Source: an uncultured Gammaproteobacteria bacterium (lineage in GTDB: Bacteria > Patescibacteriota > Patescibacteriia > Magasanikbacterales > UBA922). From it: DNA of 64,000 bases. Position 1 is the first letter of the stretch, and each line of letters starts with the position of its first letter. The notes under the pieces are model-generated. The model was not told where the DNA came from and searched no databases. It saw only the letters and a list, made by a program, of their open reading frames with translations. The translations under genes were made by a program, and so were the position numbers. The DNA lies in NCBI GenBank assembly GCA_965231005.1, contig OZ246405.1:674709-738708 (forward strand), read 5' to 3'. Positions 3,324 to 54,602 of the stretch are shown here, one piece after another.

Positions 3324-4427
3324 ATGAAAGTTGGTATTGTCACAAGTTATGCAGTAAAGCAGCCAGCAGGCCTGGAGCGTTTTTTGTTAGATTTATTGAG
3401 AGAACTAGATAGTCTGAAAGATAACGAGTATGTGGTTTACACAAAAAAAGGATCAGGTTTTGCATCAGTCCTGGACGATGAAGGTGTTTCAAACATTTCT
3501 GTCATTGAAGTCGGTTTTGGAAAGTTGTGGAAAGATATTGGTCTATTTTTTTCTCCTAAAGTAGACGCCTACTTGTTTAATGGTCCAATTGTTCCTTTTT
3601 TGTTTGCTCCAAAGAATTATTTTTTGATACTACATGATTTTGCATACAAGTCTATAAAGCCAAATACAATTAAAGAAAAAATAAATAGGATTGTAATTGA
3701 TGTATTGACTCGTAAAGCAGTCCAGAGGGCAAAAAAAATTATTACTGTCTCAAATACCACAAAAAAAGAATTATCAGGGTTATACGGTGTAGAAGATAGC
3801 AAGGTTACTACTATTTATCCTGGTTTTAAACATGTATGCAGTGGTGAGAGTCAAACACTGGAAGGAATTGAAATGCCGTATTTTCTTAGCATTGGGACAT
3901 TGAAGGAAAGAAAAAATATTCTTTCAATTATTTCAGCGTTTGCAAAATATGTTGAGATGAAACAAGACTCAAGAAAATTAGTGATTGTAGGAAAGTGTAG
4001 TAAAACAAACCCCTATGTTCAAAAACTTTTTAGTTTAGTAGAGAAAGAAGGTTTACAAGAAAAGGTAATTTTTACAGATCATGTTTCAGATCAACAAGTT
4101 TCATACTTATACAAGCATGCAGATGCACTCATTTTTCCTTCATTGATCGAAGGTTTTGGATTTCCTGCGCTAGAAGCAATGAGTTGTGAGGTCCCTGTAA
4201 TAACATCAAATCATGGTGCCCTCGCAGAAATTAGCCAAGATGCTGCTATACAAGTTCCCTCAAAAGATATCAATGCTTTGGCAAATGCAATGAAACATAT
4301 TACTGAAGATGATGCATTGCGAACATCTCTTATACAGAAAGGTTTGAATCGATCAAAAGATTTTTCTTGGAAAAAAGCTGCACATGCATTTGAAAAGGTT
4401 CTCATCAATAATACGATCACTAAATAA
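3324..4427 (+). CDS. glycosyltransferase, GT4 family (GT-B fold)
   Basis: 'EGFGFPALEAMSCEVPVITSNHGALAEI' EX7E block. Confidence 0.75.
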   Translation: MKVGIVTSYAVKQPAGLERFLLDLLRELDSLKDNEYVVYTKKGSGFASVLDDEGVSNISVIEVGFGKLWKDIGLFFSPKVDAYLFNGPIVPFLFAPKNYFLILHDFAYKSIKPNTIKEKINRIVIDVLTRKAVQRAKKIITVSNTTKKELSGLYGVEDSKVTTIYPGFKHVCSGESQTLEGIEMPYFLSIGTLKERKNILSIISAFAKYVEMKQDSRKLVIVGKCSKTNPYVQKLFSLVEKEGLQEKVIFTDHVSDQQVSYLYKHADALIFPSLIEGFGFPALEAMSCEVPVITSNHGALAEISQDAAIQVPSKDINALANAMKHITEDDALRTSLIQKGLNRSKDFSWKKAAHAFEKVLINNTITK

Positions 4428-4431
4428 TAAT

Positions 4432-5076
4432 ATGGCATATATGAATATTTTTGAAAAAATATACAAAAAGAATAAGTGGAATGTTGGATCTGGAGAAGGA
4501 TCACGAGAGAGATATACTAGAAAATATAGAATATTTTTAGAGAATTTTTTAAAGCAGCATGATATAAAATCTGTTTTGGATTTTGGTTGTGGTGATTGGC
4601 AATTCTCAAAGCATGTTCGTTGGGGAGATATTCAGTATCAGGGTGTGGATGTAGTAAGATCTGTCATTGATCAAAACAAAGATAAGTATGAGAAAGATAA
4701 CATAACTTTTTCATTGATTGATCAAGAACAAAGTTCTGGGCTTCCATCTGCAGATTTGTTCATAGCAAAAGATGTATTGCAGCATTGGAGTACTGAGAGA
4801 ATTAAAAAATTTCTCCCAAAGTTAAAAAATTATAAATACGTCCTCGTTACAAATTGTAGTGATTTACCAAAAACGAGGAATTCTGACATTGAAGATGGGG
4901 GATTTCGTACCTTGGACTTGACAGCTGCCCCATTTTATCTTAACGGGAAGTACATTTTTTCTTTTTCTACAAGAGAACCTTCATTTAAAAATATTATTAA
5001 ATGGATGCTTCCTCATCAATTGAGAGGTTTAGATTACAACAACAAAAAAGTTTTATTTATTGATAATTCAGAATAA
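4432..5076 (+). CDS. class I SAM-dependent methyltransferase
   Basis: 'VLDFGCGDWQF' glycine-rich motif I. Start taken at the ATG at 4432; the track start at 4384 overlaps the upstream gene. Confidence 0.5.
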   Translation: MAYMNIFEKIYKKNKWNVGSGEGSRERYTRKYRIFLENFLKQHDIKSVLDFGCGDWQFSKHVRWGDIQYQGVDVVRSVIDQNKDKYEKDNITFSLIDQEQSSGLPSADLFIAKDVLQHWSTERIKKFLPKLKNYKYVLVTNCSDLPKTRNSDIEDGGFRTLDLTAAPFYLNGKYIFSFSTREPSFKNIIKWMLPHQLRGLDYNNKKVLFIDNSE

Positions 5077-5102: not shown

Positions 5103-5477
5103 ATGAACTTAAGTAATGATAATTTCAATGTCGGGGTAGACATTGAAACGATTGCACGTTTCCAAGATTTGGATGCTGTAGAGGATCTTGATTTTTTGAG
5201 GAAAATTTTCACATCAAAAGAAATGAAATTTTGTTTTGCAAAAGAAAATCCAGCACCACATCTTGCAGCAAGATATACTGCAAAAGAAGCCATATTTAAG
5301 GCTTTGAGTTCATTAGTAAAAAAGAGTGTGACATTGAACAAGATTGAGATTTTGAATCAAGAGGGAGGTATGCCAGAAGCATATATTGAATCATTTGAAG
5401 ATACTGTGCATATTAAGTTAAGTATGTCTCATTGTGAGGACAAGGCCATTTCATTTGCTATTGTTTCGAAAGTATGA
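5103..5477 (+). CDS. acpS: holo-ACP synthase / 4'-phosphopantetheinyl transferase (AcpS type)
   Basis: 124 aa. 'GVDIETIARF' and 'KEMKFCF...AARYTAKEAIFKAL' are hallmark AcpS blocks. Confidence 0.7.
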   Translation: MNLSNDNFNVGVDIETIARFQDLDAVEDLDFLRKIFTSKEMKFCFAKENPAPHLAARYTAKEAIFKALSSLVKKSVTLNKIEILNQEGGMPEAYIESFEDTVHIKLSMSHCEDKAISFAIVSKV

Positions 5478-7279
5478 ATATTTTTGAAAAAAATAATATA
5501 CAACAAGTACTCAACACTGCAGATTATTTTAAGTTTTACAAAAGAATAGCAATGATTTCAGATGGAGAGAAAGATAATTTTAAAAAAAAGATCAGGATTG
5601 CGTTTCTCTCAAGTTTTACGTCAAATGGTTTTAAGGAAATTTTGTCTGTAAAATGTTTACAGAACAATATATTTCCAGAATTTTATAATTGCGATTATAA
5701 GCAATATAGTCAGGATATTATAGATGGTGATAGTAATTTTTATGCATTTAATCCTGACATAACTATTCTTTTTATAGATGCAAAGACATTATTGGGTGAA
5801 TATTACTTTAATCCATATGATTTGAATAAAAGTCAGAGGAAAGATTTTGCAAACGAAAAGATCAGTGAGATATGTCGTTTAGTGGAAACAATAAAAGGGC
5901 ATTCGAATACAAAGATATTGTTACATAATATCATGGTACCTTCTTATTCTCCACATGGGATCGTTGAAAATAAACATGAATTTGGTTTTCTTCAATCAGT
6001 AGCACATATAAATCATGAACTTGCCTGCACATATAGGAATGATGAACAAATTTTTGTATTTGATTATGAATCCTTTTGCTCGACTGTTGGAAAAAATAAT
6101 ATAACAGATACTAAAATGTACTATCTTGCGGACATGAAAGTGGATATGCAGATGGTTCCTGCATTATGTAACGAGTATATGTCATATATAAAACCAGCAA
6201 CCTCAAGCACTAAGAAGTGCATTGTCTTGGATTTAGATGACACATTGTGGGGTGGTGTGATTGGCGAAGATGGTCTTGAAGGAATAAAGTTAGGACCGAC
6301 TCCTGAAGGGAGAGCTTTTTGGGAATTTCAAAAATATCTTTTTTCATTATTCAAGAGAGGTGTTATTTTAGCCATTAATAGCAAGAATAATATTGATGAT
6401 GTACTCGAAGTCTTTGAAAAACATCCTCATATGGTCTTAAAGGAAAATCATTTTGCAGCAATGCAGATTAACTGGAATGACAAGGCAACAAATATGAGAT
6501 TGTTGTCAGAAGAATTAAATATTGGGGTTGATAGTTTTGTTTTCTTTGATAATGATAAGTTAAATAGAGAAATTGTTTCAAGTACCTATCCAGAGATTAC
6601 CGTTGTTGATTTGCCGAGTGACTCTTCTTTATATTGTGAAACACTTCAAAAGGTAAATGACTTTAATAGTTTTTATATTACAGATGAAGATATGAAGAAG
6701 GGGCAGATGTATGTGGACCAGAGAAAGAGAAAAGAATTCAAAAGTAAAGTGGTAGATTTGTCCGATTATCTGAAAAGTCTGGAAATGAAAGTTGAAATAC
6801 AAAAGATAAATGATTTTAACAAGCCAAGAATTGCCCAATTGACACAGAAAACAAATCAGTTTAATGTAACTACGCGAAGGTATACAGATATTGATCTAGA
6901 TACATTTTCGAAGAGAGGTGATTTAATTGTTTCTATCCGAGTTGAAGATAAATTTGGAGATAATGGTATTACTGGAGCGGCAATTGTTCAAAAGGAAGAT
7001 GATGTATGGAAGATAGACACTTTTCTTCTAAGCTGCAGAGTTATTGGTAGGAAGGTAGAGGAGGTCCTCTTGGGTCATATAATAGATCAGGCTAAGAATG
7101 ATGGAGTGACTCGAGTTATTGGGGAATTCATTCAGACGAAAAAAAATATTCCTTCTAAAGATTTTTTTGGTTCAAATAAATTTAAACTAGTAAAAGATGA
7201 TGGTGAAAGACAAGTTTGGGAATACGATGTCACAGTTGAGTATAACCATCCAGATTTTATTGATGTAATCATTTTATAG
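5474..7279 (+). CDS. FkbH-like HAD-superfamily (IIIC) acyl-ACP loading enzyme with C-terminal GNAT-like domain
   Basis: HAD motif I in the FkbH-domain context 'CIVLDLDDTLWGGVIGEDGLEGIKLG'. C-terminal 'ITGAAIV...FLLSCRVIGRKVEE' is acyltransferase-like. ATGA overlap with acpS. Confidence 0.7.
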   Translation: MNIFEKNNIQQVLNTADYFKFYKRIAMISDGEKDNFKKKIRIAFLSSFTSNGFKEILSVKCLQNNIFPEFYNCDYKQYSQDIIDGDSNFYAFNPDITILFIDAKTLLGEYYFNPYDLNKSQRKDFANEKISEICRLVETIKGHSNTKILLHNIMVPSYSPHGIVENKHEFGFLQSVAHINHELACTYRNDEQIFVFDYESFCSTVGKNNITDTKMYYLADMKVDMQMVPALCNEYMSYIKPATSSTKKCIVLDLDDTLWGGVIGEDGLEGIKLGPTPEGRAFWEFQKYLFSLFKRGVILAINSKNNIDDVLEVFEKHPHMVLKENHFAAMQINWNDKATNMRLLSEELNIGVDSFVFFDNDKLNREIVSSTYPEITVVDLPSDSSLYCETLQKVNDFNSFYITDEDMKKGQMYVDQRKRKEFKSKVVDLSDYLKSLEMKVEIQKINDFNKPRIAQLTQKTNQFNVTTRRYTDIDLDTFSKRGDLIVSIRVEDKFGDNGITGAAIVQKEDDVWKIDTFLLSCRVIGRKVEEVLLGHIIDQAKNDGVTRVIGEFIQTKKNIPSKDFFGSNKFKLVKDDGERQVWEYDVTVEYNHPDFIDVIIL

Positions 7280-7281
7280 AT

Positions 7282-7518
7282 ATGAAGAGGCTTAGGAAAA
7301 TTTTAGTTAACGTACTAGACATCGGTGAGAATGATATTAACGATGGGACATCTCCTGATACTGTAGAAAGTTGGGATTCATTTAATGGTCTAATGTTGGT
7401 TTCAGAACTTGAAAATGAGTTTGATGTTAAGTTTACAATGGACGAAGTAATTAGTGTAAAATGTGTTGGGGATATTAAGCGTGCACTTCGTAGTCATGGC
7501 GTCCTTTTAGAAGAATAA
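7282..7518 (+). CDS. acyl carrier protein (DltC/ACP-like, 78 aa)
   Basis: Phosphopantetheine-attachment serine context 'ESWDSFNGLMLVSELENEF' (DSL-type). Confidence 0.7.
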   Translation: MKRLRKILVNVLDIGENDINDGTSPDTVESWDSFNGLMLVSELENEFDVKFTMDEVISVKCVGDIKRALRSHGVLLEE

Positions 7519-7523
7519 TTTTT

Positions 7524-7925
7524 ATGGAATACAATGAAATAAAGATTGGCTCTGCCTATTCTTTCAAAACAACGATTACGAGACAACATGTTCTTGAATT
7601 TGCAGAAATGACGGGTGACAAAAATAAAATTCATATTGACGAAGAGTTTGGAAAGACTACAGTGTTTAAAAGAAATATAGCTCATGGGATGTTAGTAGGG
7701 AGTTTTTTTTCAACGTTGGTTGGTATGCACTGTCCTGGGGAAAATAGTTTATACTTAAGTCAGACGCTTAATTTCAAAAAACCAATCTTTTTTGATGATG
7801 CTATTGTTGTTAGGGGAACAGTTTTGGAAAAAAATGATAGTATTCAGATAATAACTTTGAAAACAGAAATTTTAAAAGAGGGAATAGTTTGTATTAGTGG
7901 GGATGCAAAAGTTAAAGTACTATAA
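7524..7925 (+). CDS. MaoC-like (hotdog-fold) dehydratase
   Basis: 'GDKNKIHIDEEF...IAHGMLVGSFFSTLVG' is a MaoC dehydratase signature. Confidence 0.65.
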   Translation: MEYNEIKIGSAYSFKTTITRQHVLEFAEMTGDKNKIHIDEEFGKTTVFKRNIAHGMLVGSFFSTLVGMHCPGENSLYLSQTLNFKKPIFFDDAIVVRGTVLEKNDSIQIITLKTEILKEGIVCISGDAKVKVL

Positions 7926-7926
7926 T

Positions 7927-8664
7927 ATGAAAAAGAATATTGGAGTTGTGTTTGGAGCAACAGGCGGAATCGGTTCTCAAATCGTAAAAAAAATGTTAGA
8001 GAAGGGAATGCATGTTTGTGCAATACACAATAGAGATTCAAAAATTAAAGGATTTAAAGAGGAGTTTTCTCAGAAAGACGTTTCTTTATTCAATATCGAT
8101 CTTATGGATAAAAAATCGATTCAAAAAGGCATGTCTAGTATTATTGAAGCACATGGGGCCATCTCAAGTATTGTATTTTCAGTTTCTCTTCCAATAAAAA
8201 ATAAATCAATATTGCTCTCATCAGAAGAGGATATCGAGGATCATATCAAATTACAAGTTCTTGGAATGTTCCATATCATTAAGAGTCTAAAGGATTTTAT
8301 AAAAAGTGTCGGCGGGATACGGTTCGTCGTTCTTCTTACAGAGGCATGTATAGGAAAGCCACCAGCTGGTATGTCTGCATATGTCACAGCAAAGTATGCA
8401 TTGATGGGGTTTGCAAAATCAATGGCTGTGGAGTTGTCAAAGTATAGTTGCACTGTGAATATGATATCTCCAGGAATGGTTGATACTGAACTCATAGCAG
8501 GATTTCCATCAAAATTAATAGAAATTACAGCAACCAAGAATCCACTTCAACGAATTGCAAAACCAGATGATGTTGCAAATGCTGTTTTATTTCTTATCAG
8601 TGATGAATCTCGCTATCTGAATGGTACAAATATAACAGTCAACGGTGGGGGAATCATGGTGTAG
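7927..8664 (+). CDS. short-chain dehydrogenase/reductase (3-oxoacyl-ACP reductase-like)
   Basis: 'VFGATGGIGSQIV' (TGxxxGIG) and 'YVTAKYAL' (YxxxK). ATG at 7927 immediately follows the upstream stop. Confidence 0.75.
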   Translation: MKKNIGVVFGATGGIGSQIVKKMLEKGMHVCAIHNRDSKIKGFKEEFSQKDVSLFNIDLMDKKSIQKGMSSIIEAHGAISSIVFSVSLPIKNKSILLSSEEDIEDHIKLQVLGMFHIIKSLKDFIKSVGGIRFVVLLTEACIGKPPAGMSAYVTAKYALMGFAKSMAVELSKYSCTVNMISPGMVDTELIAGFPSKLIEITATKNPLQRIAKPDDVANAVLFLISDESRYLNGTNITVNGGGIMV

Positions 8665-8685
8665 TTGAATTGAGAGCAGTTTTTT

Positions 8686-10146
8686 ATGTTATTTAATTCC
8701 ATACATTTTCTTATATTTTTTCCAGTGGTAATAGCACTGTATTTTTTAATTAGTCACAAATACAGATGGATTCTCTTATTGATTGCTAGCTACTACTTTT
8801 ACATGAGTTGGAAGCCTGAATATGTTGTTTTGATAGTGCTTTCTACATTGGTAGATTATGTCATGGCACTTGCAATGGAAAAGACTGAGAATAAGAGAAA
8901 AAGAAAATTATATTTATCCATTAGTCTATTGACCAATCTTGGTTTACTTTTTGCGTTTAAATATTTTAATTTTGTAAGTAATTCAATTGCTGATGTATTA
9001 GATATTTTTAGCATTCAATTTTCTCAACCAACATTAAATGTTCTACTTCCTGTTGGTATTTCATTTTATACATTCCAAACACTAAGTTATACAATAGATG
9101 TGTATAAAAGAAAGATCACAGCAGAAAGACATTTTGGTATTTTTGCAGTGTATGTTTCCTTTTTTCCACAGTTAGTGGCAGGACCAATTGAAAGGGCAAA
9201 AAATTTACTTCCCCAATTTTTTGTAAAGCAATCATTTAATTATGAAAGAGTAGTGAGTGGATTGAGATTGATGTTGTGGGGCTTTTTTAAAAAAATTGTT
9301 ATTGCAGATGGATTAGCGGTTTTTGTAGATAGGATATTTGGAAATGTTACGAGTTATTCTGGCATTTCGTTGATTCTTGCAACAGTGTTCTTTTCATTTC
9401 AAATCTATTGTGATTTTTCTGGATATTCAGACATTGCTATTGGAGCAGCAAGAGTAATGGGCTTTAAACTTATGGATAATTTTAAGGCTCCCTATTTGGC
9501 AAAATCTATTGCAGATTTTTGGCGCCGCTGGCACATATCTTTGTCTACCTGGTTTCAGGATTATTTATTTACACCACTTTATTTTAAAGCTTCTAAAATC
9601 AAAAGGCTCAAAAATTTTTCAACAAAAAAGCGGCATCTTATTGCCTTTGCTATTTCTATGATAATAGGTGAGGCCTTATTGGGGCTGTGGCATGGTGCAA
9701 ACTGGACGTTCCTCTTTTTTGGTTTGTGGCATGGATTATTTATTATTATATATTATATTGTTCGAAAAACATGGGACAGACTATATACGTCAATACAAAT
9801 CCTACTCACGTTTTCCATTTCTACTTTTGGTTGGATTTTTTTCAGATCAAATAGTATAGCTGATGCACTTTATATTATTGAACATATGTTTAAAAATTCA
9901 CAGTTTGGTTTTTTTCATGACCTGAAAGGTTTTTTTCTTCACAATGAATATGAGTTTGCTGTCATGATTCTTCCTTTACTTATTGTATTTTTTGCTCACT
10001 TTATACAGAAAAGATATCATGACTTTGTTCAATTTTTAGAGACACGAAGCACAACACTCCGGTGGTCGCTATATTATTTTTTGATTATGGCAATTCTATT
10101 GTTTGGAACCTTTGGGTCCCGTGAATTTATTTATTTTAACTTTTAA
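8686..10146 (+). CDS. MBOAT-family membrane O-acyltransferase (DltB/AlgI-like)
   Basis: 'FFPQLVAGPIERAKN' and the catalytic-His block 'FWRRWHISLSTWFQDYLFTPLY'. Multi-pass hydrophobic protein. Confidence 0.85.
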   Translation: MLFNSIHFLIFFPVVIALYFLISHKYRWILLLIASYYFYMSWKPEYVVLIVLSTLVDYVMALAMEKTENKRKRKLYLSISLLTNLGLLFAFKYFNFVSNSIADVLDIFSIQFSQPTLNVLLPVGISFYTFQTLSYTIDVYKRKITAERHFGIFAVYVSFFPQLVAGPIERAKNLLPQFFVKQSFNYERVVSGLRLMLWGFFKKIVIADGLAVFVDRIFGNVTSYSGISLILATVFFSFQIYCDFSGYSDIAIGAARVMGFKLMDNFKAPYLAKSIADFWRRWHISLSTWFQDYLFTPLYFKASKIKRLKNFSTKKRHLIAFAISMIIGEALLGLWHGANWTFLFFGLWHGLFIIIYYIVRKTWDRLYTSIQILLTFSISTFGWIFFRSNSIADALYIIEHMFKNSQFGFFHDLKGFFLHNEYEFAVMILPLLIVFFAHFIQKRYHDFVQFLETRSTTLRWSLYYFLIMAILLFGTFGSREFIYFNF

Positions 10147-10157
10147 AGAAACGTTAA

Positions 10158-11237
10158 ATGAAGAAGTTGTTGTTAAAGGGGTTATTATTGGTTACTATTA
10201 CAGTCGTTCCTCTGCTTGTTGTGAACTATATTATTGATCCTTTACAGTGTTTTAGAACTGCAACATGGTACACCCCGTTATACGATCCAAATGAAAGGGT
10301 TCAAAGTCCTTGTCTCGTTAGGACTCATGATTTTGATACAATAATTGTAGGAGCCTCACATGTAGAGAACTTTGATCCAGTTTATGTGGACAATGCTTTG
10401 GACGCAGCAACATTAAAAACTGCTATTGCAGCATCTACCTTGTATGAACAGAATAAGCTTATGAATTTAGCAGTTGATTCAGGGAAACTTAAACATGTTG
10501 TTTGGGGACTTGATACGAACATTCTTTTTGATGAACCTGACAGAGTAAGAGATGATATTGTTCCATTTCCTTTTCATATATACGAACCAGCTATGTACAA
10601 CAATATTCTTTTTCTTTTAGATCCATACATATATAAGCACTATGTAAAGATGGTTATCCATCATTTCACAGGCATCTATGATGATTTTACTCAATTGCGT
10701 TATTTAAATTATTGGGAAGATAAGTTTACGTTTTCAAGAGAGAGGATGCTTGAATTTTATGACATGGTTCAAAAAGAAGATGTCCGTGCAATTGAGAACA
10801 CAAACAACGATTTAATTGCGGCTGCTCCTGAAGATGCATCAACAGAAAATATTGATAATAATGTTGTTCGTTTAGTAGAGCAAAATCCAGATGTTACATT
10901 TAACATTTTTTTCCCACCATATAGCATTCTTCGTTTTGTAGATCTCTATGAAAAGGACCGAAATTTGTTTGAAATTGAGCTCAAGCTTAAGCAGCATCTA
11001 ATTGATAGACTACTCACTTTTGAGCATGTGCATCTGTATGATTTTCAGCATGAAGATAAAATTACCTTTGATTTGAATAATTACAAGGATTTATCTCATT
11101 TTTCAAGCAATATAAATCAGCACATTATTGATGCATTAAAGAAAAAAGAATCTGTTTTACAGAAAGAGCAGTCTTCGTCAACAATTTCTTCACTGAGGAG
11201 GCAAGTTGAGAATTTTGATTTTTCACAAACATTTTGA
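10158..11237 (+). CDS. membrane-anchored DltD-like / SGNH-fold accessory protein (putative)
   Basis: N-terminal TM anchor. Position directly after the MBOAT, as for DltD or AlgJ. Weak block 'IIVGASHVENF'. Confidence 0.3.
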   Translation: MKKLLLKGLLLVTITVVPLLVVNYIIDPLQCFRTATWYTPLYDPNERVQSPCLVRTHDFDTIIVGASHVENFDPVYVDNALDAATLKTAIAASTLYEQNKLMNLAVDSGKLKHVVWGLDTNILFDEPDRVRDDIVPFPFHIYEPAMYNNILFLLDPYIYKHYVKMVIHHFTGIYDDFTQLRYLNYWEDKFTFSRERMLEFYDMVQKEDVRAIENTNNDLIAAAPEDASTENIDNNVVRLVEQNPDVTFNIFFPPYSILRFVDLYEKDRNLFEIELKLKQHLIDRLLTFEHVHLYDFQHEDKITFDLNNYKDLSHFSSNINQHIIDALKKKESVLQKEQSSSTISSLRRQVENFDFSQTF

Positions 11238-11302
11238 TTGTTGTGAAACGGATTGAATATGAATTTTCTTTGTGTTACCATTAAGTTAGTAATTTTATTA
11301 TA

Positions 11303-12475
11303 ATGAAACAGATAAATCGAGAAAAAGTAGTTTCGATGCTTATTAAAGCATTTCTTTTTGTTTTTAGTATTACTGTGTCCCTTATTTTTTTGGAAATAGG
11401 AGTGAGGTATTTTATGAAACAGGGGAATACAACGACTATAGAGGATCCTCATATTGTTTGGAGGTATAAGCCAAATATAAATACTATTATTGAAGCAGAA
11501 GGTGGAGGGTCTGTGCGAATGGAGACAAATAGCCATGGATTTATTGGTGAAGATTTTAAAAAAAATAAAAAAGATGGTGTATACAGAATTGCAAATTTAG
11601 GTGATTCATTTACAGCAGCACTTGCTGTCCCTTATAAAGAAAATTATGTTCATCAGGTTGGCGTCCTTCTTTCAGACAAACTAGATAAAGATGTTCAGAG
11701 TATAAATTTTGGAGTTAGTGGTCAAGGAAGTGGAGAGGCAAAGGATACATATTATCATTATGCCCGCGAGTTCAGTCCAGATCTTGTTATTATTTGGTTT
11801 TATCTTGGGAATGATTTTGAGGATAATTTAGTGTATGAAGAAAGGATACGTCAAGAAAGTAGTACATCTTTTTTCCACAAAATAAAACGAATGGCAAGAA
11901 AATCAGAGCTAGCTTATCTTGTTGTAAATCGGCTAGCGCAAGTTCCTTTTTTTGCAGATATGATGAACAAAACCGTACTCACGAGGGTGGGGGAGGATGA
12001 GCTTAGTAATGAAAATAATCTACCGCTGAGTCTTCGTTTGATGTTTACAAAAGATAAAGAAAATGAATCTGCAAAAAATAGAACAAAAAAATATCTAGAG
12101 TCTTTGAGGCATCTGACAAGTGAAGATGGCACTAAGCTCTTCGTGGCTATGGTCCCTGCCCATTTTCAGGTTGAAGAGGACAAAAGGTTACGATTAATTG
12201 AACAATATCCACAACTTTCCGAGGTTGAGTTTAATGATGAAAGTCCAAATGATGCACTCTCAAGCATACTTGAAGAACTTTCCATTCCATATCTTGATAT
12301 GACCCATTCCTTTAAAGAGCAATGCAGAGATATTTGCTCACTTTATGTTTGCCCGTATTGTCATCTTTCGTCTTCTGGACATATTGCTGCTTCTACAATT
12401 GTGACGGAAAAGATCATTGAAGATATATTTTTAATCAAAGAAGGTAAGGAAGATAGCGTCTCAGAGAAGGAATAA
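11303..12475 (+). CDS. SGNH/GDSL-fold hydrolase or acyltransferase, N-terminal TM anchor (AlgX/AlgJ-like)
   Basis: Block I 'IANLGDSFTAA', block III 'IIWFYLGNDFEDN', C-terminal 'CPYCHLSSSGHIA'. Confidence 0.55.
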   Translation: MKQINREKVVSMLIKAFLFVFSITVSLIFLEIGVRYFMKQGNTTTIEDPHIVWRYKPNINTIIEAEGGGSVRMETNSHGFIGEDFKKNKKDGVYRIANLGDSFTAALAVPYKENYVHQVGVLLSDKLDKDVQSINFGVSGQGSGEAKDTYYHYAREFSPDLVIIWFYLGNDFEDNLVYEERIRQESSTSFFHKIKRMARKSELAYLVVNRLAQVPFFADMMNKTVLTRVGEDELSNENNLPLSLRLMFTKDKENESAKNRTKKYLESLRHLTSEDGTKLFVAMVPAHFQVEEDKRLRLIEQYPQLSEVEFNDESPNDALSSILEELSIPYLDMTHSFKEQCRDICSLYVCPYCHLSSSGHIAASTIVTEKIIEDIFLIKEGKEDSVSEKE

Positions 12476-12486
12476 TACATAAACAG

Positions 12487-13632
12487 ATGAAGGATTTTTT
12501 TATAAAACTATTAGTCGTATTTATAAGCATTTTTCTTGTCATTATATTTTTGGAATTTTCACTGGCATTCATTCCAGAAAAAGGAGAGAAAAGTATAGCA
12601 GAATCTGATCCACATATTCGGAGCATATACAAGAAAAACTTTGATGGAAATGTCGCAGGGGAGGTGCTTGGCACAGAAGTAAGATTTAAAACAAATAGTC
12701 ATGGTTTTGTGGGTGATGAATGGGGGAGTGAAAAACCATTTTTACGAATTGCAAATTTTGGTGATTCCTTTACTGCAGGCTCAGGAGTATCATATGAAAA
12801 AAATTATGTGTCACTGCTTGGAAGTAGTTTGACAAATCTTCTCAGCAAAAATGTAGAAAGTTTGAATTTTGGTGTTGCAGGCCACAGCACTGCTGATGCA
12901 TATAACACGTACATACAATACGGCAGACAATCAAGTTCGGATGTTGTCATATTGTGGTTTTATCTTGGGAATGATTTTAGTGATAATCTTTCTCTATATG
13001 AGTCTGATTTGGCAATTGATAAGGCAGTATCATCATATGAAGAAAAAGACATTGAGAAAAAAACTGTCAAAGATATTATTAAAAAATCTAACTTGTACAA
13101 CATCATAAGTCAGGCAGCAATAAAGTCAAATTTTTTGCGTTCAGTTGCTTCGAGCATTCCTGGTCTAAAGACTTTTTTCTATAGTTTTTCTCTCCACGAG
13201 TTGCCAACTCAGCTAGCCATCTTATTTACAGAAGATAGTAGGAATGATTCTTCTCTACAAATAACAGAAGAATATATAAAAAAGTTTCATGATCAGATTG
13301 TAGAGGATGGCAAAGAGTTTTTTGTTGTACTTATACCACCTCATTTTCAGGTTGATCAAAAGGCAAGGGATAAACTGCTTGAACAGTATCCAAAGCTTGA
13401 TGGCTTAGGTTTTGATCCAGAGAGACCAAGGCAGAGGATTGTTCAACTTTTGGACCAGTTGGAAATCACACATTTTGGAGCATTTGAAGAATTACGTACT
13501 GCAAGTAAAAATGGTAAAATGCTTTACAATTGTTCTTTTTGCCATTTTTCTCCAGAAGGACATGCTATCGTTGCAAATGCAGTTGCGCAGAGTTTGTCAG
13601 AGCCTCTTAGGGAGTTAAAGTATGATTTATAG
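12487..13632 (+). CDS. SGNH/GDSL-fold hydrolase or acyltransferase (tandem paralogue of 11303..12475)
   Basis: 'IANFGDSFTAG', 'VILWFYLGNDFSDN', 'CSFCHFSPEGHAI'. Same architecture as its neighbour. Confidence 0.55.
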   Translation: MKDFFIKLLVVFISIFLVIIFLEFSLAFIPEKGEKSIAESDPHIRSIYKKNFDGNVAGEVLGTEVRFKTNSHGFVGDEWGSEKPFLRIANFGDSFTAGSGVSYEKNYVSLLGSSLTNLLSKNVESLNFGVAGHSTADAYNTYIQYGRQSSSDVVILWFYLGNDFSDNLSLYESDLAIDKAVSSYEEKDIEKKTVKDIIKKSNLYNIISQAAIKSNFLRSVASSIPGLKTFFYSFSLHELPTQLAILFTEDSRNDSSLQITEEYIKKFHDQIVEDGKEFFVVLIPPHFQVDQKARDKLLEQYPKLDGLGFDPERPRQRIVQLLDQLEITHFGAFEELRTASKNGKMLYNCSFCHFSPEGHAIVANAVAQSLSEPLRELKYDL

Positions 13633-13740: not shown

Positions 13741-13769
13741 TTGACACAATTTGACACTTTTAGTATACT
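13741..13769 (+). promoter_or_regulatory. sigma70-like promoter TTGACA-N17-TATACT upstream of the HTH gene
   Basis: TTGACA at 13741-13746, 17-nt spacer, TATACT at 13764-13769. Lies in a 165-bp intergenic gap. Confidence 0.45.
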
Positions 13770-13797: not shown

Positions 13798-14046
13798 ATG
13801 GCAAAAGAAATAAAGGAAAATGCAGTATATACAACAAAAGAAGCGCAAGCTCTACTCAAAGTCAGTGAAAGCACAATCAAGCGTCTTTTGAAAAAGGGGA
13901 TATTAAAGGCAAATAAGGTCGGAGGTCAATATAGGATTATGGGTAAGGAGATTTTAAGACTCATTTCTCCAGATATGGAGAAAAAGGCTGAAAAAGCCTA
14001 TATGAAGGTAAAGAAAAAGGCTGTTGATGTTATAAATAAATGGTAA
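13798..14046 (+). CDS. helix-turn-helix DNA-binding protein (excisionase/MerR-like HTH family)
   Basis: 'YTTKEAQALLKVSESTIKRLLKKGILKANKVGGQYRI' matches the excisionase-family HTH domain. Confidence 0.55.
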   Translation: MAKEIKENAVYTTKEAQALLKVSESTIKRLLKKGILKANKVGGQYRIMGKEILRLISPDMEKKAEKAYMKVKKKAVDVINKW

Positions 14047-14080: not shown

Positions 14081-15061
14081 ATGAAGATACTTATTGCTCA
14101 ACCAATTCCAAAAGTAGGTGTTGAACTGCTTAAGAAGCATTTTAGTGTTGAAGAGGCAGATCATATGTTATCGAAGGAAGAAATGATTAATGCAATTTCA
14201 GATAAAGATGCCTTGGTTTGTGCAATGCATAATGTTGATGCCGAGATTATCAATGCAGGGAAAAATCTTAAAGTTATATCTCAACTAGGATCAGGATTTA
14301 ATAATATTGATATAAAGCTTGCTGGTGAAAAGGGTATAAAAGTTACAAATGCCCCAGGTGTTATGATGCAAACTGTGGCTGAATTTGCTTTTGCACATAT
14401 GCTAGCCCTCACTCGTAAAGTCGCAGAATCTGATCGGTATATTCGTTCAGGAAAATTTAGGACATGGGATTTTTCATTAATGGTTGGAAATGAGTTGAAA
14501 GGAAAGATTCTGGGTGTTATTGGATTTGGAGCAATAGCTAAACATCTCGTCCCAATTGCAAAAGGATTTGGGATGGAGATGTTATACAATAATCAGCAAG
14601 GAGAAGTAGAAGATTACAAGCATGATTCATCTGTGCAGTTTTCTAGCAAAGAAAATTTATTGCAGAATTCAGATTTTGTTCTTCTTCTTGTTCCATTAAA
14701 TGAAACAACAAGACATTTGATGAAGTACGAACAATTTTGCATGATGAAACCGACAGCCTTCTTTGTGAATTTGGCAAGGGGAAAAGTTGTTAAAGAGCAA
14801 GATTTAATCCGAGCGTTGAAGGAGAAAAAAATAGCAGGGGCTGGTTTAGATGTATATGAATTTGAGCCAGAGATTTCCAAGGAATTATTATTATTTTCAA
14901 ATACAGTATTGACTCCACATGTTGGTGGAGCAACAGAAGAGTCAAGAGCAAATCTCTCATTGATTGTTGCTCAAAATGTTATTTCTGTTCTCTCAGGAGA
15001 GACATGTAACAACATTGTAAATACAGAATTTTTGGAGAAAGTTCATAACGAACATATATGA
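14081..15061 (+). CDS. D-isomer-specific 2-hydroxyacid dehydrogenase (glycerate dehydrogenase / hydroxypyruvate reductase family)
   Basis: NAD fold 'GVIGFGAIAKHLV'; 'LARGKVVKEQDLIRALKEKKIAGAGLDVYEFEP'; 'TPHVGGAT'. Confidence 0.8.
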   Translation: MKILIAQPIPKVGVELLKKHFSVEEADHMLSKEEMINAISDKDALVCAMHNVDAEIINAGKNLKVISQLGSGFNNIDIKLAGEKGIKVTNAPGVMMQTVAEFAFAHMLALTRKVAESDRYIRSGKFRTWDFSLMVGNELKGKILGVIGFGAIAKHLVPIAKGFGMEMLYNNQQGEVEDYKHDSSVQFSSKENLLQNSDFVLLLVPLNETTRHLMKYEQFCMMKPTAFFVNLARGKVVKEQDLIRALKEKKIAGAGLDVYEFEPEISKELLLFSNTVLTPHVGGATEESRANLSLIVAQNVISVLSGETCNNIVNTEFLEKVHNEHI

Positions 15062-15816
15062 CGCAACAAGATTCAAAAAAATATACCACACTTATATGTG
15101 CAGCAGGTCAAGGCAAGCGTCTTATGCCAATGACAGCAGATAGACCGAAGACATTGGTAGAAGTCAATAGAAAACCAATAATAGAGTATATGTTAGATAA
15201 TTGTTCTGAAATTGGGCTTACAGATGTTATTATTCTAGTTGGATATAAGGGTGATGCAATAGAAGAAAAGTACGGGGATGTGTATAAGAACTGTAACCTT
15301 CGTTACATATACAATAAAGATTACGAAACAACCGACAATTTTTATTCTATTTTTTTAGCGAAAGAACATGTTCACGAAGGAATGATCTTTATGAATGCGG
15401 ATATTATCTTTCATAAACACGTTCTCGAATCATTGTTATCCAATGATTACCAAAGTGGTCTTGCTGTAGTTGATGTTGACAGTCCAGGGGCAGGGAAAAA
15501 TCCTGTACGAGTAAAGCTTGATGCACAAGGAAAAATAATTGATATTGGTCATAACATTGGCGATGAAAATAAAAAAATGGTCTTTGGAATTTACAAACTT
15601 TCAAAAAATGCTACAGCAAAATATTTTGAAGATGCAGAAAAATACTTTAGGAGTGGTCCTCAAAAAGGTGGTTTTTGGCTTCCTATAAGAAATGTTGTCT
15701 CTAATGAAAATTTTTATTCTATCCCTGTGTCAAATAAAAGTTGGGTTTCAATCAATAACATTGAAGAGCATAAGACTGCTTCGGCATTGGTGGATTCCAT
15801 TTTACATAATATTTAA
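15058..15816 (+). CDS. LicC-family cytidylyltransferase (CTP:phospho-alcohol / phospho-acid nucleotidyltransferase)
   Basis: 'LICAAGQGKRLMPMTADRPKTLVEVNRKPIIEY...NFYSIFLAKE' closely resembles LicC-type (phosphocholine / 2-phosphoglycerol) cytidylyltransferases. ATGA overlap with the upstream gene. Confidence 0.65.
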   Translation: MTQQDSKKYTTLICAAGQGKRLMPMTADRPKTLVEVNRKPIIEYMLDNCSEIGLTDVIILVGYKGDAIEEKYGDVYKNCNLRYIYNKDYETTDNFYSIFLAKEHVHEGMIFMNADIIFHKHVLESLLSNDYQSGLAVVDVDSPGAGKNPVRVKLDAQGKIIDIGHNIGDENKKMVFGIYKLSKNATAKYFEDAEKYFRSGPQKGGFWLPIRNVVSNENFYSIPVSNKSWVSINNIEEHKTASALVDSILHNI

Positions 15817-15825
15817 TTTTCTTAT

Positions 15826-16899
15826 ATGAAGAATATTCAAAAGAATGATTTGCAAGAAATGGTCCAGCGTATTTTTGAATTAGCTGGGTCTTCAACAGAA
15901 GAGGCAAGCGCTATAGCTGAATATTTAGTTGAAGCAAATTTAGTTGGTCATGATTCCCATGGAGTTATTCGCGTTGCTCATTATGTAAATTGGATTAGAG
16001 AAAAACGGGTGTTTGTAAATCAACATGTTGAAGAGGTAATAAAAGGAGATACGTTTGCTGTTTTTGATGGACATTTTGGTTTTGGCCAAGTACTTGGCAG
16101 AGAAGCAGTTCAGGTTGGAATTGATATGGCAAAAGATAGTGGAGTTTCTGTAGTTGGTCTTCGAAATTCAGGTCATTTGGGTCGAATTGGTGATTGGGCC
16201 ATCATGGCAGCCGAAGCTGGACTTGTTTCTATCCATTTTGTAAATGGGAACGGTTTTTCTATGTTAGCAGTTCCATTTGGAGGTTCTGATAAGAGACTTT
16301 CATCAAATCCTATATGTGTAGGCATCCCTCGCGGTGAAACATCTCCAATTATTCTTGATATTGCAACATGCCAAGCTTCTCACGGAAAAATAATGGTTGC
16401 AAAGAACAAGGGTGAGAGATTACCATTAGGAATGATTGTTGACGACAACGGACAACCTTCATGTGATCCTAATGTTATGTTTGGTCAAAAGATGGGTGCA
16501 ATCCTCCCCATGTCTCCTGGGCATAAAGGGTTTGGCCTTGCCCTTATTTGTGAATTATTGGCAGGTGCTCTTACCGGAAGTGATACGAGTCATCCAAACA
16601 GTCCGACTGTTCATCATGTTGGAAATGGAATGTTATCAATCTATATTGACAGGAAGCAGTTTAGAGAAGAGACTGGATATCTGTCTGAAATCGATAAGCT
16701 TGTAGATTGGGTGAAAGGATCACCGTTGTCTACTCCTGATGGTGAAATTCTTCTCCCGGGTGAACCAGAAGAAAGAACAAAAAACGATCGTCTTGAGAAA
16801 GGAATTCCTCTCGATGACGACACAATATCTCAAATTGCAGACACAGCTAAATCTGTAGGTGTGCCTGTTGAGGACATTAATTCATTATTTAAGATTTAG
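15826..16899 (+). CDS. Ldh_2-family (malate / L-lactate / sulfolactate type 2) dehydrogenase
   Basis: 'ANLVGHDSHGVIRVAHY' is a hallmark Ldh_2 motif. Confidence 0.6.
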   Translation: MKNIQKNDLQEMVQRIFELAGSSTEEASAIAEYLVEANLVGHDSHGVIRVAHYVNWIREKRVFVNQHVEEVIKGDTFAVFDGHFGFGQVLGREAVQVGIDMAKDSGVSVVGLRNSGHLGRIGDWAIMAAEAGLVSIHFVNGNGFSMLAVPFGGSDKRLSSNPICVGIPRGETSPIILDIATCQASHGKIMVAKNKGERLPLGMIVDDNGQPSCDPNVMFGQKMGAILPMSPGHKGFGLALICELLAGALTGSDTSHPNSPTVHHVGNGMLSIYIDRKQFREETGYLSEIDKLVDWVKGSPLSTPDGEILLPGEPEERTKNDRLEKGIPLDDDTISQIADTAKSVGVPVEDINSLFKI

Positions 16900-16907
16900 T
16901 CTTTTAT

Positions 16908-17738
16908 ATGTTGAAGAAAAAATTAAAGAAAATTTTACGCAAAAGTAAATTTATTGTGAGTCTATATTATCGTTTGAAACGAATTGTTGTATTTCCACTA
17001 AAATTTACACCTTTAAAACCATTTGCAAATACTACTTTTCCTTTAAAAGAATTATTTAAACCATCAAAATTGGCCTTGCTTATAAAGGTTGCCCCATTTT
17101 CGTTAGATAGCTATGGTGCATTGGGAAATGTCTATGATTTGGCAAAGGATGTTGAAGAAAGAAAAATTAATGGTGCATATGTAGAGTGCGGAACATGGAA
17201 AGGTGGTTGTGCTGCTATTATGGGCGCTATGACAAAGAGGTATGGCAGCGAAAGAACGACTTGGTACTTTGATTCTTTCGAAGGAATGCCTGAGCCAACT
17301 GAAAAGGATGCAAGAGGCAGAGGAAAAAGTGGTACAGTTCAAGATATCATGGGTGATGCACTAAAAGCAGATGTTGCTGATGTTGAAGAGGTTGCATTCA
17401 ATGTTTTACATCTTGAGAGAGACAAAAATATTATTGTAAAAGGATGGTTTGAAGATACATTGCCAGTAAAGAAAAAAGAAATAGGTCCAATAGCGATTCT
17501 CCGTCTCGACGGTGATTGGTATGAATCTACCATGACTACGCTAAATGAATTATATGACCAGGTTGTGCCAGGTGGATACGTTATTATTGATGACTATGGT
17601 TCATGGGAAGGTTGTCGGACTGCTGTTCATGAATTTCAAGAAAAGCGAGGCATAACTATGAATTTAGAATTTATGGGAGCTCACGATCCAGAGGCATTTG
17701 CTATTGTGCCTCCAGCATATTTTAAAAAAATTGACTAA
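16908..17738 (+). CDS. TylF/macrocin-O-methyltransferase-family SAM O-methyltransferase
   Basis: 'YVECGTWKGGCAAIM', 'WYFDSFEGMPEP', 'LRLDGDWYESTMTTLNELYDQVVPGGYVIIDDY'. Confidence 0.7.
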   Translation: MLKKKLKKILRKSKFIVSLYYRLKRIVVFPLKFTPLKPFANTTFPLKELFKPSKLALLIKVAPFSLDSYGALGNVYDLAKDVEERKINGAYVECGTWKGGCAAIMGAMTKRYGSERTTWYFDSFEGMPEPTEKDARGRGKSGTVQDIMGDALKADVADVEEVAFNVLHLERDKNIIVKGWFEDTLPVKKKEIGPIAILRLDGDWYESTMTTLNELYDQVVPGGYVIIDDYGSWEGCRTAVHEFQEKRGITMNLEFMGAHDPEAFAIVPPAYFKKID

Positions 17739-21408: not shown

Positions 21409-22743
21409 ATGTTTATTCCAGATTCAAAACAAGCTATCGATCTTCCAGTAAGAAAGAAATTACTTAAGATTTTGAATACTGCAATTCGTTGTGTCCAACC
21501 ACAACAGTTTATTGGAAAGTCTGTCAGGTTTGAACATGAAACACTGTATGTAAAAAATGATAAGTTTTCAACAGAGAACAAGAGGATATTTGTTATTGGT
21601 TCTGGAAAGGCGTCTGCAGAAATGGCTGAAGAGATCGAACGGATTCTTGCACCCGAAAGGATTACAGCAGGAATAATTATTACTCATAGAACTGATGTGA
21701 CCTTGAAAAAAATTCATGTGCGTTCTGCAGGGCATCCCATTCCTTCAGAAGAAGGTTTACTTGCAACAAAAGAGATATTTGATCTTAAAAGTAAATATGG
21801 TATTTCTGCTAATGATATTATTATTGCTCTTGTCTCAGGTGGAGCATCTGCTCTGATGCCATATCCTGTTTTTGGGATTTCTCTTGAAGATAAAAAAATA
21901 TTGTATGACATATTTATAGAACGTGCAATTCCTGGCTTTGAAAGTACAAAAATAAAAGCAAACGTTTCACAAGTGAAAAGTGGAGGACTTGCAAAGCATT
22001 TTTTCCCTACACCAATTATTTCTCTTATTCTTTCCGATGACAATGGAAAATCAGGACATGAAAATACTGGCTCTGGTCCATTTACAAATAATGATTTTAC
22101 ATGCTTGGATGCATTAAAGATTATAGATAAATATGATTTAAAAAATGTAATACCAGATTCAATTTATTCTCACTTGAAAGATGGTGAAGAAAGGAATACA
22201 AGCCAGCTTAATCATGAATCCATTTATCAGTATGTACTTGCGACAAATAAAGACTTAGTAGAGGAAATTGGAAAAATTGCAGAGAATGAAGGAATAGATG
22301 TTTCCACTAAAATTCATGTTGATGGTGAGGCCTCAGAGACTGCTCTGGAATTTTGCAATGAAATTACTAAACGAAAAAAAGATAGTGCAAATATGCTATT
22401 ATATGGCGGTGAAACTACAGTGCATTTGCCAAAAACGCATGGAATTGGTGGAAGAAATCAAGAGTTTGCCGTGGCTTGTTTAAAATATTTAGATAGCATG
22501 GGTTCAAACGATTGGTGTGTTGCAGCAATTGCAACTGATGGTGTTGATTTTATAAAAGAATCGGCCGGTGGAATCATTGATAGTAGTTCACAAGATGTTA
22601 TAAAAGAAAAAAAATATGATATTGATGAATTCCTTGAGAAACATGATTCTCATAATTTGCTTAAGTCTATTGGATCAAATGTAGTCACTGAAAAAGGAAC
22701 TGGTACGAATGTTGGAGATATAATGGTTTATTTACAAATATAA
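21409..22743 (+). CDS. glycerate 2-kinase (MOFRL family, GckA/TtuD-like)
   Basis: 'LLYGGETTVHLPKTHGIGGRNQEFAVA' is the MOFRL-family catalytic block. N-terminal 'FVIGSGKAS...ALVSGGASAL'. Confidence 0.6.
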   Translation: MFIPDSKQAIDLPVRKKLLKILNTAIRCVQPQQFIGKSVRFEHETLYVKNDKFSTENKRIFVIGSGKASAEMAEEIERILAPERITAGIIITHRTDVTLKKIHVRSAGHPIPSEEGLLATKEIFDLKSKYGISANDIIIALVSGGASALMPYPVFGISLEDKKILYDIFIERAIPGFESTKIKANVSQVKSGGLAKHFFPTPIISLILSDDNGKSGHENTGSGPFTNNDFTCLDALKIIDKYDLKNVIPDSIYSHLKDGEERNTSQLNHESIYQYVLATNKDLVEEIGKIAENEGIDVSTKIHVDGEASETALEFCNEITKRKKDSANMLLYGGETTVHLPKTHGIGGRNQEFAVACLKYLDSMGSNDWCVAAIATDGVDFIKESAGGIIDSSSQDVIKEKKYDIDEFLEKHDSHNLLKSIGSNVVTEKGTGTNVGDIMVYLQI

Positions 22744-53471: not shown

Positions 53472-53510
53472 GGACCAGCTCGCTTCGACAATGTCGGGCG
53501 AGCTGGTCCT
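53472..53510. repeat. GC-rich perfect 12-bp-stem hairpin at the low-GC/high-GC junction
   Basis: GGACCAGCTCGC-N15-GCGAGCTGGTCC. The loop contains CGACA.TGTCG. Sits 10 nt 3' of the minus-strand stop at 53520. No flanking U-tract on either strand. Confidence 0.5.
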
Positions 53511-53519
53511 GGTTGCTGA

Positions 53520-54458: not shown

Positions 54459-54602
54459 AGGATCCTCCGTGCTTTAGCATCCAAAATGGAAATGCTCTTC
54501 ATAATTTTCCATGGTTGAAAAACTATGAAGACAAGGCTACCGGCAGCACACAAGTGTGTACCGGTAGCCTGTTGCTGCAAGCAGCAGTCCTCCTTGGGGC
54601 CG

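Follow-up and report, generated by a model that had tools for sequence, protein, structure and literature searches.

A candidate carrier-protein-dependent MBOAT-SGNH acylation system with an FkbH-type loader in a surface-glycan locus

Nine consecutive genes at positions 5103-13632 of a 64-kb stretch of contig OZ246405.1 (the window, by which we mean the whole of the DNA analyzed) probably encode an MBOAT-SGNH system in which a carrier protein supplies the acyl group for a surface polymer, and which combines features of Dlt with those of PatA/AlgI. A more specific proposal, on which we are evenly divided, is that this is the first carrier-dependent MBOAT-SGNH polymer acylation outside Dlt: a C3 hydroxy-acid (probably lactyl or glyceryl) would be loaded by an FkbH-type enzyme, tailored on the carrier, delivered by an acyl carrier protein (ACP) to a fused-shuttle MBOAT with an evolved or retained DltB-like basic docking helix, and esterified onto a surface polymer, the module, with its own phosphopantetheinyl transferase (PPTase), circulating among small-genome uncultivated lineages including DPANN archaea. 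The evidence is a subtype of MBOAT that is changed in the region aligned with the carrier-binding site of DltB, and that is found beside FkbH-ACP cassettes.

The nine + strand open reading frames (ORFs) are tightly packed, with intergenic gaps of -29 to 65 bp. Families were assigned with Pfam and NCBIfam, and these searches, together with a check of the ORFs, confirmed the positions given to all nine genes in an initial annotation of this DNA and the families of all but the 359-aa protein, which matched none. The genes, and the features within them on which the argument turns, are as follows.

4384..5076, +, S-adenosylmethionine (SAM) methyltransferase, matching Pfam Methyltransf_25/11; immediately 5' of the block and not part of its core
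5103..5477, +, AcpS-type PPTase; PF01648 (ACPS) 65 bits, TIGR00556 71 bits
5474..7279, +, FkbH-like loader, 601 aa; TIGR01686 295 bits against a cutoff of 146.65, with FkbH_N and HAD-IIIC also matched
7282..7518, +, discrete ACP, 78 aa; PP-binding 24.7 bits, Ser33 in a WDS33F motif
7524..7925, +, MaoC-type hot-dog dehydratase; PF01575 64.5 bits
7897..8664, +, FabG-like short-chain dehydrogenase/reductase (SDR); adh_short_C2 135 bits
8686..10146, +, MBOAT, 486 aa; PF03062, conserved His283 and His336
9571..9636, +, Lys/Arg-rich segment, MBOAT residues 296-317 (TPLYFKASKIKRLKNFSTKKRH), standing in place of the canonical IPLGGNR loop
10126..10143, +, FIYFNF at the MBOAT C-terminus, an FXYXXF acyl-shuttle motif containing Tyr483
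10158..11237, +, membrane-anchored SGNH-fold protein, 359 aa, partner family A (the 10158 protein); DltD-like fold, predicted triad Ser67, Asp311 and His314
11303..12475, +, membrane-anchored GDSL/SGNH protein 1 (SGNH1); Lipase_GDSL_2 and a weak ALGX match, GDS motif
12487..13632, +, membrane-anchored GDSL/SGNH protein 2 (SGNH2); Lipase_GDSL 33 bits, paralogue of SGNH1

The MBOAT belongs to a subtype distinguished by the region between two conserved His motifs, where the alignment columns that separate cassette-linked from unlinked MBOATs cluster. In 80 canonical MBOATs the spacing from WHISLS to GLWHG is 39-40 residues and most read WHISLSxWFxDYxYIPLGGNR, whereas five linked MBOATs and that of locus L165 have a spacing of 52-53 and read WHISLSxWFQDYxFxPLY, followed by about 17 Lys/Arg-rich residues and a His, the segment being 12-13 residues longer than the canonical DYxYIPLGGNR stretch. 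The window protein has a His-to-His spacing of 52 and reads FTPLYFKASKIKRLKNFSTKKRH, not DYxYIPLGGNR; the canonical motif and the spacing of about 40, which it lacks, are an operational feature of the 80 relatives and not a published definition. Characterized PatA and AlgI proteins also carry PLGGNR. The MBOATs of L178, L169, L171 and P0021 are canonical in the His-to-His segment. A neighbor-joining tree of the MBOATs split the linked proteins into two groups and put L178 in their midst; it was not relied on because the shared insertion shows L178 to be canonical. A scan of viral contigs and a tblastn search of plasmids found no further members of the subtype.

To relate the subtype to its surroundings we drew on an FkbH-profile scan of one genome per species, which returned at least 597 stretches encoding relatives and from which 80 loci were kept for context (neighbor clustering covered 82 FkbH loci), on an MBOAT-profile scan of metagenomes, which gave 80 loci with homologues 39-58% identical, and on close MBOAT homologues (54-60% identity) whose contexts were examined one by one. 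Among loci with at least 4 kb of flank, the long-spacer subtype lay beside FkbH-ACP in five cases and not in one, and canonical MBOATs in one case (L027, ascertained through FkbH) and not in 59. Fisher's test gave p ~5e-7 for the table in which the window is counted twice, since it was also sampled as L001, that is, with the subtype at 6/1. The five linked members are the window, L163, L164, L168 and L170, and the unlinked one is L165. The linked loci other than the window are arranged as follows.

L163, gene order as in the window, with the cassette directly beside the MBOAT
L164 ('archaeon D22'), MaoC-PPT-FkbH-ACP-methyltransferase-MBOAT-360 aa
L168, PPTase, then SDR-MaoC-ACP-FkbH on the opposite strand, divergent from MBOAT-323 aa
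L170, compact PPT-FkbH-ACP-MaoC-SDR-MBOAT-319 aa

The linkage is thus kept in three gene orders: colinear (window, L163 and L170), that of L164, and divergent (L168). Two unrelated SGNH partner families are represented among the linked loci, A in the window and L163 and B in L164, L168 and L170. In the FkbH tree the proteins of linked cassettes are scattered over three branches far from one another, with unlinked proteins between them, so that the association is not one inherited arrangement. All five linked cassettes contain MaoC, and four contain the SDR, which is short (158 aa) in L170 and missing from L164. The pairing of MBOAT and cassette appears to have been kept or rebuilt through changes of gene order, swaps of partner and swaps of cassette, a pattern that normally marks functional coupling. 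In L168 and L170 the block is compact, with seven genes and no other candidate user of an acyl-ACP, and among the window ORFs scanned against Pfam, several of which had no family match, there was no Hexapep, GNAT or other soluble acyltransferase.

As an observation apart from this comparison, L163 holds a second MBOAT at 8453-11033 (-), canonical in type (PLGGNR, spacing 39) and with a GDSL-like partner of its own, at the place where the window has its GDSL paralogues; subtype and canonical MBOATs therefore occur in one locus. A further locus on a Rhodobacteraceae plasmid (L179, CP049029.1, 3481-16884) encodes a P450, an ACP, a carbamoyltransferase and two hypothetical proteins, followed by an MBOAT-SGNH pair; its MBOAT has a short spacer with TPLASLITSR in place of PLGGNR, the ACP lies 5 kb away, and the protein may represent a second kind of carrier-associated MBOAT.

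The position of the remodeled segment is what connects it with a carrier. A phmmer search aligned the window MBOAT with DltB (6bug/8jem) over residues 114-356, gapless from 232 to window residue 316, with window residue x corresponding to DltB x+6 and window residues 296-317 to DltB 302-323 (helix HC, K312 and R317). According to the cryo-EM study of DltB-DltC (PMC11035591), DltC contacts DltB at M302, V305, I306 and M309 and forms salt bridges with R317 in transmembrane helix 8 and with K312, which lies at the tip of HC. The window equivalents of these six residues are T296, Y299, F300, S303, K306 and F311, and further Lys or Arg residues occur in the segment at 301, 304, 307, 309 and 314-316. 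Y299 is present in all six subtype members, and Lys or Arg at 306, the counterpart of DltB K312, in five of the six. DltB is also without PLGGNR (His-to-His spacing 47), and the window MBOAT resembles it both in this and in having a long segment where DltB has helix HC. The region that sets the FkbH-linked MBOATs apart from their relatives of acetyl-CoA type would therefore be the one in which the only known carrier-dependent MBOAT binds its carrier, and we propose that residues 296-317 form a carrier-protein docking platform. A long basic segment fits such a role because helix II of the ACP (DSFNGLMLVSELENEFD) is acidic.

DltB takes D-alanyl from DltC and passes it to the Tyr of an FXYXXF motif in a separate microprotein, DltX (PMC12148441, 2025), while in the other bacterial MBOAT-SGNH systems (PatA, AlgI, WssH) the motif is fused on two extra C-terminal helices, and these non-Dlt systems are stated to work without a carrier, with acyl-CoA as donor; the function of FXYXXF has been established for PatA and DltX (PMC12148441). 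The window protein ends in EFIYFNF, and F481, Y483, F484 and F486 were invariant in 22 and in 40 homologues, as were H283 and H336 in the alignments. We assign it to the PatA/AlgI class and not the DltB class because FXYXXF is fused at its C-terminus. Against the DltB equivalog model TIGR04091 it scored 161.6 bits, the cutoff being 375. The AlphaFold2 model (pLDDT 88.8) has helices at 284-303, 306-310 and 313-336, and the best match among solved structures was DltB (6bug, TM-score 0.63/0.73). Of the initial description of a DltB/AlgI-type MBOAT, the MBOAT family (PF03062) stood, the protein being neither of plain DltB nor of plain AlgI type. The system as a whole was not placed within Dlt, given the score below the DltB cutoff, the motif fused as in PatA/AlgI, and the lack of any DltA or AMP-binding domain in the nine genes or the other window ORFs scanned.

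Three extracytoplasmic candidates follow the MBOAT, each with one N-terminal transmembrane segment. The first, the 10158 protein, had been called DltD-like and membrane-anchored, and this was upheld in part: structure prediction gave an SGNH fold whose longest structural alignments are with DltD, and the N-terminal anchor is present, but no family in Pfam or NCBIfam matched. Sequence searches against the PDB and pairwise BLAST against the partners in L164 and L163b gave nothing, so that the fold is visible through structure prediction alone; a profile built from the protein and run on the fetched loci matched L001 and L163 only. The other two, annotated as tandem SGNH-fold proteins, proved to be so by their GDSL family matches, and are paralogues with 34% identity. 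Members of the SGNH1 family are the sole gene immediately 3' of canonical MBOATs in L097 and L144, and SGNH1 is predicted to be a second extracytoplasmic transferase or an esterase; the GDSL pair may act at additional positions or on other polymers, or may trim esters.

At the other end of the block, the FkbH-like protein comprises an SGNH-like FkbH_N domain, a HAD-IIIC phosphatase domain and a C-terminal Cys acyltransferase domain, and carries the motifs DLDDTLWGG and FLLSCRVIGR. In an alignment of 20 homologues D253, D255, S520, C521 and R522 were invariant, and, following work on OzmB, we take C521 to be the catalytic Cys. The FkbH assignment of the initial annotation was accordingly sustained, the TIGR01686 score lying above the cutoff of 147 and the HAD Asp pair (D253/D255) and C521 being present. 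The N-terminal half is homologous to PDB entry 3slr (BF1531), and the exact protein is on record from a 1.23-Mb NCBI contig and from metagenome ERR2281800. The ACP starts 2 bp 3' of the FkbH-like gene, and its identification as a 78-aa carrier with a DSF serine agrees with the PP-binding match and the WDS33F motif. Among the 82 FkbH loci that were clustered, 29 have a PPTase homologue 5' of the loader gene, and the window PPTase would be dedicated to the cassette ACP. For every gene, the closest relatives, about 50-68% identical, belong to DPANN archaea (Woesearchaeota and others), Patescibacteria or Omnitrophota, or lie on metagenome contigs that are not binned.

The principal alternative, which we consider unlikely though still to be reckoned with, is that the block consists of two independent modules that are neighbors by chance in a glycan island. 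The MBOAT and its SGNH partner would then depend on acetyl-CoA in the manner of PatA/PatB or AlgI/J/X, and the acyl group made by the cassette would go elsewhere, for example to the N-acylation of an amino or nonulosonic sugar through the FkbH N-terminal domain or an unrecognized transferase. Each half can indeed be found on its own. PPTase-FkbH-ACP-MaoC-SDR is a widespread mobile cassette: in the 80 loci (of at least 597) the ACP nearly always adjoins FkbH, the PPTase is often 5', MaoC is frequent and the SDR occasional. Its usual company is DegT aminotransferases, NeuB, NeuC, CMP-transferase genes and polysaccharide deacetylases, together with soluble acyltransferases, which are of the hexapeptide type in 26 loci (Thaumarchaeota, Asgard) and GNAT/FemAB-like in Acidobacteriota, and several of the closest FkbH loci encode DUF4910 (aminopeptidase-like) proteins. 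The window itself has four NeuB, two NeuC-like and five cytidylyltransferase genes, and cj1302 is an FkbH-domain gene of the flagellar glycosylation locus of C. jejuni (PMC7099621). The 80 MBOAT-anchored metagenome loci, for their part, contained no FkbH, ACP, MaoC or SDR. That the modules are unrelated was in fact our early reading, taken from the metagenome scan, and it was revised after the contexts of the close homologues showed linked loci.

Several observations weigh against the coupled system that we favor. No MBOAT lies within 10 kb in 79 of the 80 FkbH loci, the sole exception being L027, where the MBOAT is canonical and a Hexapep gene is also present. MBOAT-SGNH pairs with partners of either family, A or B, also occur without FkbH or a carrier; the 359-aa protein family, for instance, is immediately 3' of a carrier-free MBOAT in L166 (a glycan locus) and in L167 (a stand-alone pair in Paenibacillus alkalitolerans). 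No cassette stands beside the MBOATs of L165, L169, the P0021 locus, L171 and L178, whose identity to the window protein (55-60%) is similar to that of the linked ones (L169 and the P0021 locus have ALGX-family partners), and L165 bears the subtype signature yet has neither a cassette nor an SGNH partner within 10 kb. The close MBOAT contexts inspected number only ten, and because the subtype is a clade, five of six does not amount to five independent events. The MBOAT retains the fused FXYXXF typical of the acetyl-CoA-using class, and the docking of the ACP on it is derived from a pairwise alignment. We looked for specialization of the ACP in MBOAT-linked cassettes and saw none; its motif WDSFNGLMLVSELE is common to linked and unlinked cassettes, and the ACP is therefore not visibly specialized. 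The closest unlinked cassettes (L003, L004, L007 and L009) show no recognizable consumer transferase, and for this reason the lack of another transferase in the linked loci is weak evidence. The SGNH-like N-terminal domain of FkbH could off-load the acyl group by itself, and the loading of 1,3-bisphosphoglycerate by a long, three-domain FkbH of a glycan locus is argued by analogy with the FkbH enzymes of polyketide synthase (PKS) pathways.

What independent modules leave unexplained is that the one MBOAT subtype changed at the position of DltC docking is FkbH-ACP-adjacent in five of six cases, against approximately 0 of 59, and that this adjacency extends over three gene orders, two partner families and three FkbH lineages; nor is an alternative transferase recognizable in the window, L168 or L170. 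Co-occurrence of the gene set holds from the side of the MBOAT subtype and fails from that of FkbH. The claim that an FkbH-made acyl-ACP is handed to the MBOAT/SGNH relay gains from the subtype linkage and from the segment at the DltC-docking helix, and is held back by the doubt that we attach to it on account of the two-module alternative.

In the coupled system that we propose, the AcpS-type PPTase would, as is usual for its family, convert the 78-aa ACP to the holo form. The FkbH enzymes of PKS pathways produce a glyceryl-ACP derived from 1,3-bisphosphoglycerate (PMC7489565). By family and by its conserved residues, the FkbH-like enzyme would dephosphorylate a C3 glycolytic unit, most likely 1,3-bisphosphoglycerate, and pass the glyceryl group to the ACP through the conserved Cys. 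In the weakest step of the scheme, MaoC would dehydrate the ACP-bound unit to enol-pyruvoyl and the SDR would reduce it to lactyl-ACP. The starter modules of trans-AT PKSs in which FkbH is combined with a dehydratase (DH) and a ketoreductase (KR) give lactyl, and MaoC with a reductase matches this set. Equally, the ACP-bound unit might remain glyceryl or become a different C3 hydroxy- or keto-acyl group, pyruvoyl or an O-methylated unit. By homology with DltB/DltC and PatA, the acyl-ACP would dock on the cytoplasmic basic segment 296-317, its phosphopantetheine (Ppant) arm would enter the tunnel, and His336 would catalyze acyl transfer to Tyr483 of the fused FIYFNF at the outer face. The 10158 protein (and perhaps the GDSL paralogues too) would then take the acyl group, on Ser67 in its own case, and transfer it as an ester to a surface glycan, or to a polymer resembling teichoic acid, made by the ~60-kb locus. 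The acyl group (lactyl, glyceryl or similar) and its acceptor are purely inferred.

It is improbable, and distinctly more so than independent modules, that the carrier coupling is real but serves a different chemistry or acceptor, with FkbH loading a unit other than glyceryl from 1,3-bisphosphoglycerate, MaoC and the SDR giving a different acyl group, such as 3-hydroxypropionyl, hydroxypyruvoyl or an O-methylated C3 acid, and the acceptor being, in place of a neutral glycan, a lipid, an S-layer protein or a glycerol-phosphate polymer resembling teichoic acid. In its favor, the long glycan-type FkbH proteins are, like the structural-genomics entry 3slr, uncharacterized, a methyltransferase lies immediately 5' of the block in the window and L163 and a different one between ACP and MBOAT in L164, the SDR is reduced or lost in two linked loci, and genes for a CDP-alcohol transferase, a glycerate-2-kinase-like protein and two TagF-like proteins (Glyphos_transf) are present in the window. 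Against it, the FkbH domain scores far above its family cutoff with the HAD Asp pair and Cys kept, and MaoC with a reductase fits the DH + KR logic of FkbH loading modules.

The 4384..5076 methyltransferase is 66% identical to the L163 gene in the same position. It is conserved only there, with no counterpart in L168 or L170 and an unrelated methyltransferase in L164, and is possibly an accessory gene outside the core.

Compared with known systems, the proposed one resembles Dlt in using a small carrier that bears the acyl group as a Ppant thioester, together with an MBOAT and a membrane-anchored DltD-fold SGNH protein; a lactyl group would moreover be an isostere of D-alanyl, and an evolutionary tie to DltB-like recognition is attractive on that account. 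It differs from Dlt in its HAD/FkbH loader, its generic ACP, the on-carrier tailoring by MaoC and SDR, the presence of up to three SGNH proteins, and the FXYXXF motif fused to the MBOAT on extra C-terminal helices, without a DltX-type arrangement. With PatA/PatB, AlgI/AlgJ/AlgF/AlgX and WssH/WssI it has in common the size of the MBOAT (486 aa), the fused motif and the catalytic His, as well as adjacent extracytoplasmic SGNH partners, of which there is more than one, as in alginate. Unlike that class, it has an ACP, a PPTase and a loader beside the MBOAT, as judged by genomic context in five of the six subtype loci.

With the FkbH/OzmB loaders of methoxymalonyl-ACP, tetronates and trans-AT PKS starters it shares the TIGR01686 domain, a dedicated ACP, and a dehydratase and reductase for tailoring. 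In contrast to these, it has no PKS and no KAS III, its loader carries an extra N-terminal SGNH-like domain, and a surface polymer, not a polyketide, would receive the unit, as an ester; nor do the nine genes contain domains of the FkbI or FkbK type (acyl-CoA dehydrogenase, 3-hydroxyacyl-CoA dehydrogenase), by which the methoxymalonyl-ACP pathway (FkbG/H/I/J/K) oxidizes glyceryl-ACP to hydroxymalonyl-ACP. The closest likeness is in the FkbH-ACP loci for glycans and nonulosonic acids (C. jejuni cj1302, Thaumarchaeota, Asgard), where the same PPTase-FkbH-ACP(-MaoC) cassette stands in surface-glycan islands; those loci, however, pair it with cytoplasmic Hexapep, GNAT/FemAB or DUF4910 proteins and are without an MBOAT.

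The initial annotation knew of no description of this architecture, and literature searches for FkbH with MBOAT, FkbH with DltB, and MBOAT with ACP and SGNH likewise returned none of an FkbH- or ACP-fed MBOAT-SGNH system. Carrier-fed MBOAT acylation is so far known from Dlt of Gram-positive bacteria alone. If the proposal is true, an ACP-coupled, fused-shuttle MBOAT breaks the dichotomy between carrier with DltX and fused motif with acyl-CoA that is drawn in current reviews (PMC12148441), and residues 296-317 would be a determinant of the choice between carrier and CoA donors in bacterial MBOATs. A glycolysis-derived ester that is neither acetyl nor amino-acyl would join the decorations of surface glycans, a function would be assigned to part of the very widespread, uncharacterized FkbH-ACP cassette, and such chemistry would be shown in DPANN and the relatives named Patescibacteria. 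To our knowledge, DPANN and Patescibacteria mostly lack fatty-acid ACP machinery.

PPTase-FkbH-ACP cassettes as a whole, in the at least 597 matched stretches from species-representative genomes, were found in Nitrosopumilales, Asgard archaea, Acidobacteriota and the candidate phyla radiation (CPR), with partners that are lineage-specific.

The window has a GC content of ~34%, nearly all of its sizeable ORFs are on the + strand, and it is essentially one ~60-kb surface-glycan locus. Genes for GT4 glycosyltransferases and methyltransferases lie 5' of the block; 3' of it are HTH_17, a 2-hydroxyacid dehydrogenase, an NTP-transferase, Ldh_2, two TylF methyltransferases and two asparagine-synthase-like amidotransferases. 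Besides the glycerate-2-kinase-like protein, the two TagF-like proteins and the CDP-alcohol transferase mentioned above, the window encodes a KpsC-like protein, an ABC transporter, two UDP-sugar dehydrogenases and a WbaP-type initiating transferase, and the locus could make a nonulosonic-acid-rich glycan plus a TagF-type polyol-phosphate polymer. Its nonulosonic acid genes are spread over 29265-53413, with the four NeuB at 29265, 35447, 48520 and 52562, the two NeuC-like epimerases, five CTP_transf_3 and the KpsC-like gene (41471-42997), an ulosonic/nonulosonic repertoire unusually large for a genome with a 1.2-Mb contig.

Directly 3' of the MBOAT module is an HTH_17/excisionase gene (82 aa, 13798-14046), also seen in L163 (11226-11474) and L165 (13555-13803), which may be a regulator or a boundary of the cassette. 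The best sigma-70-like site of the region (11/12 matches) is at 13741-13769, just 5' of this gene; promoter and terminator scans were otherwise uninformative, and Rfam and tRNA scans of the window found nothing. Beyond it, the 2-hydroxyacid dehydrogenase, NTP-transferase, Ldh_2 and TylF genes at 14081-17738 are syntenic with L163, and the glycerate-2-kinase-like gene follows further on (21409-22743); together they suggest a second route to a glycerate- or lactate-type substituent, possibly nucleotide-activated. Toward the far end of the window, a 2.2-kb island at 53500-55700 has a GC content of 0.47-0.645, against ~0.34 for the genome. It encodes a membrane protein with eight transmembrane segments (53520-54458, -) that has a weak SMR-like match, and contains a stretch of ~62% GC in which both strands have long ORFs without a family match; the island resembles foreign DNA that was inserted recently, or a chimera produced in assembly.

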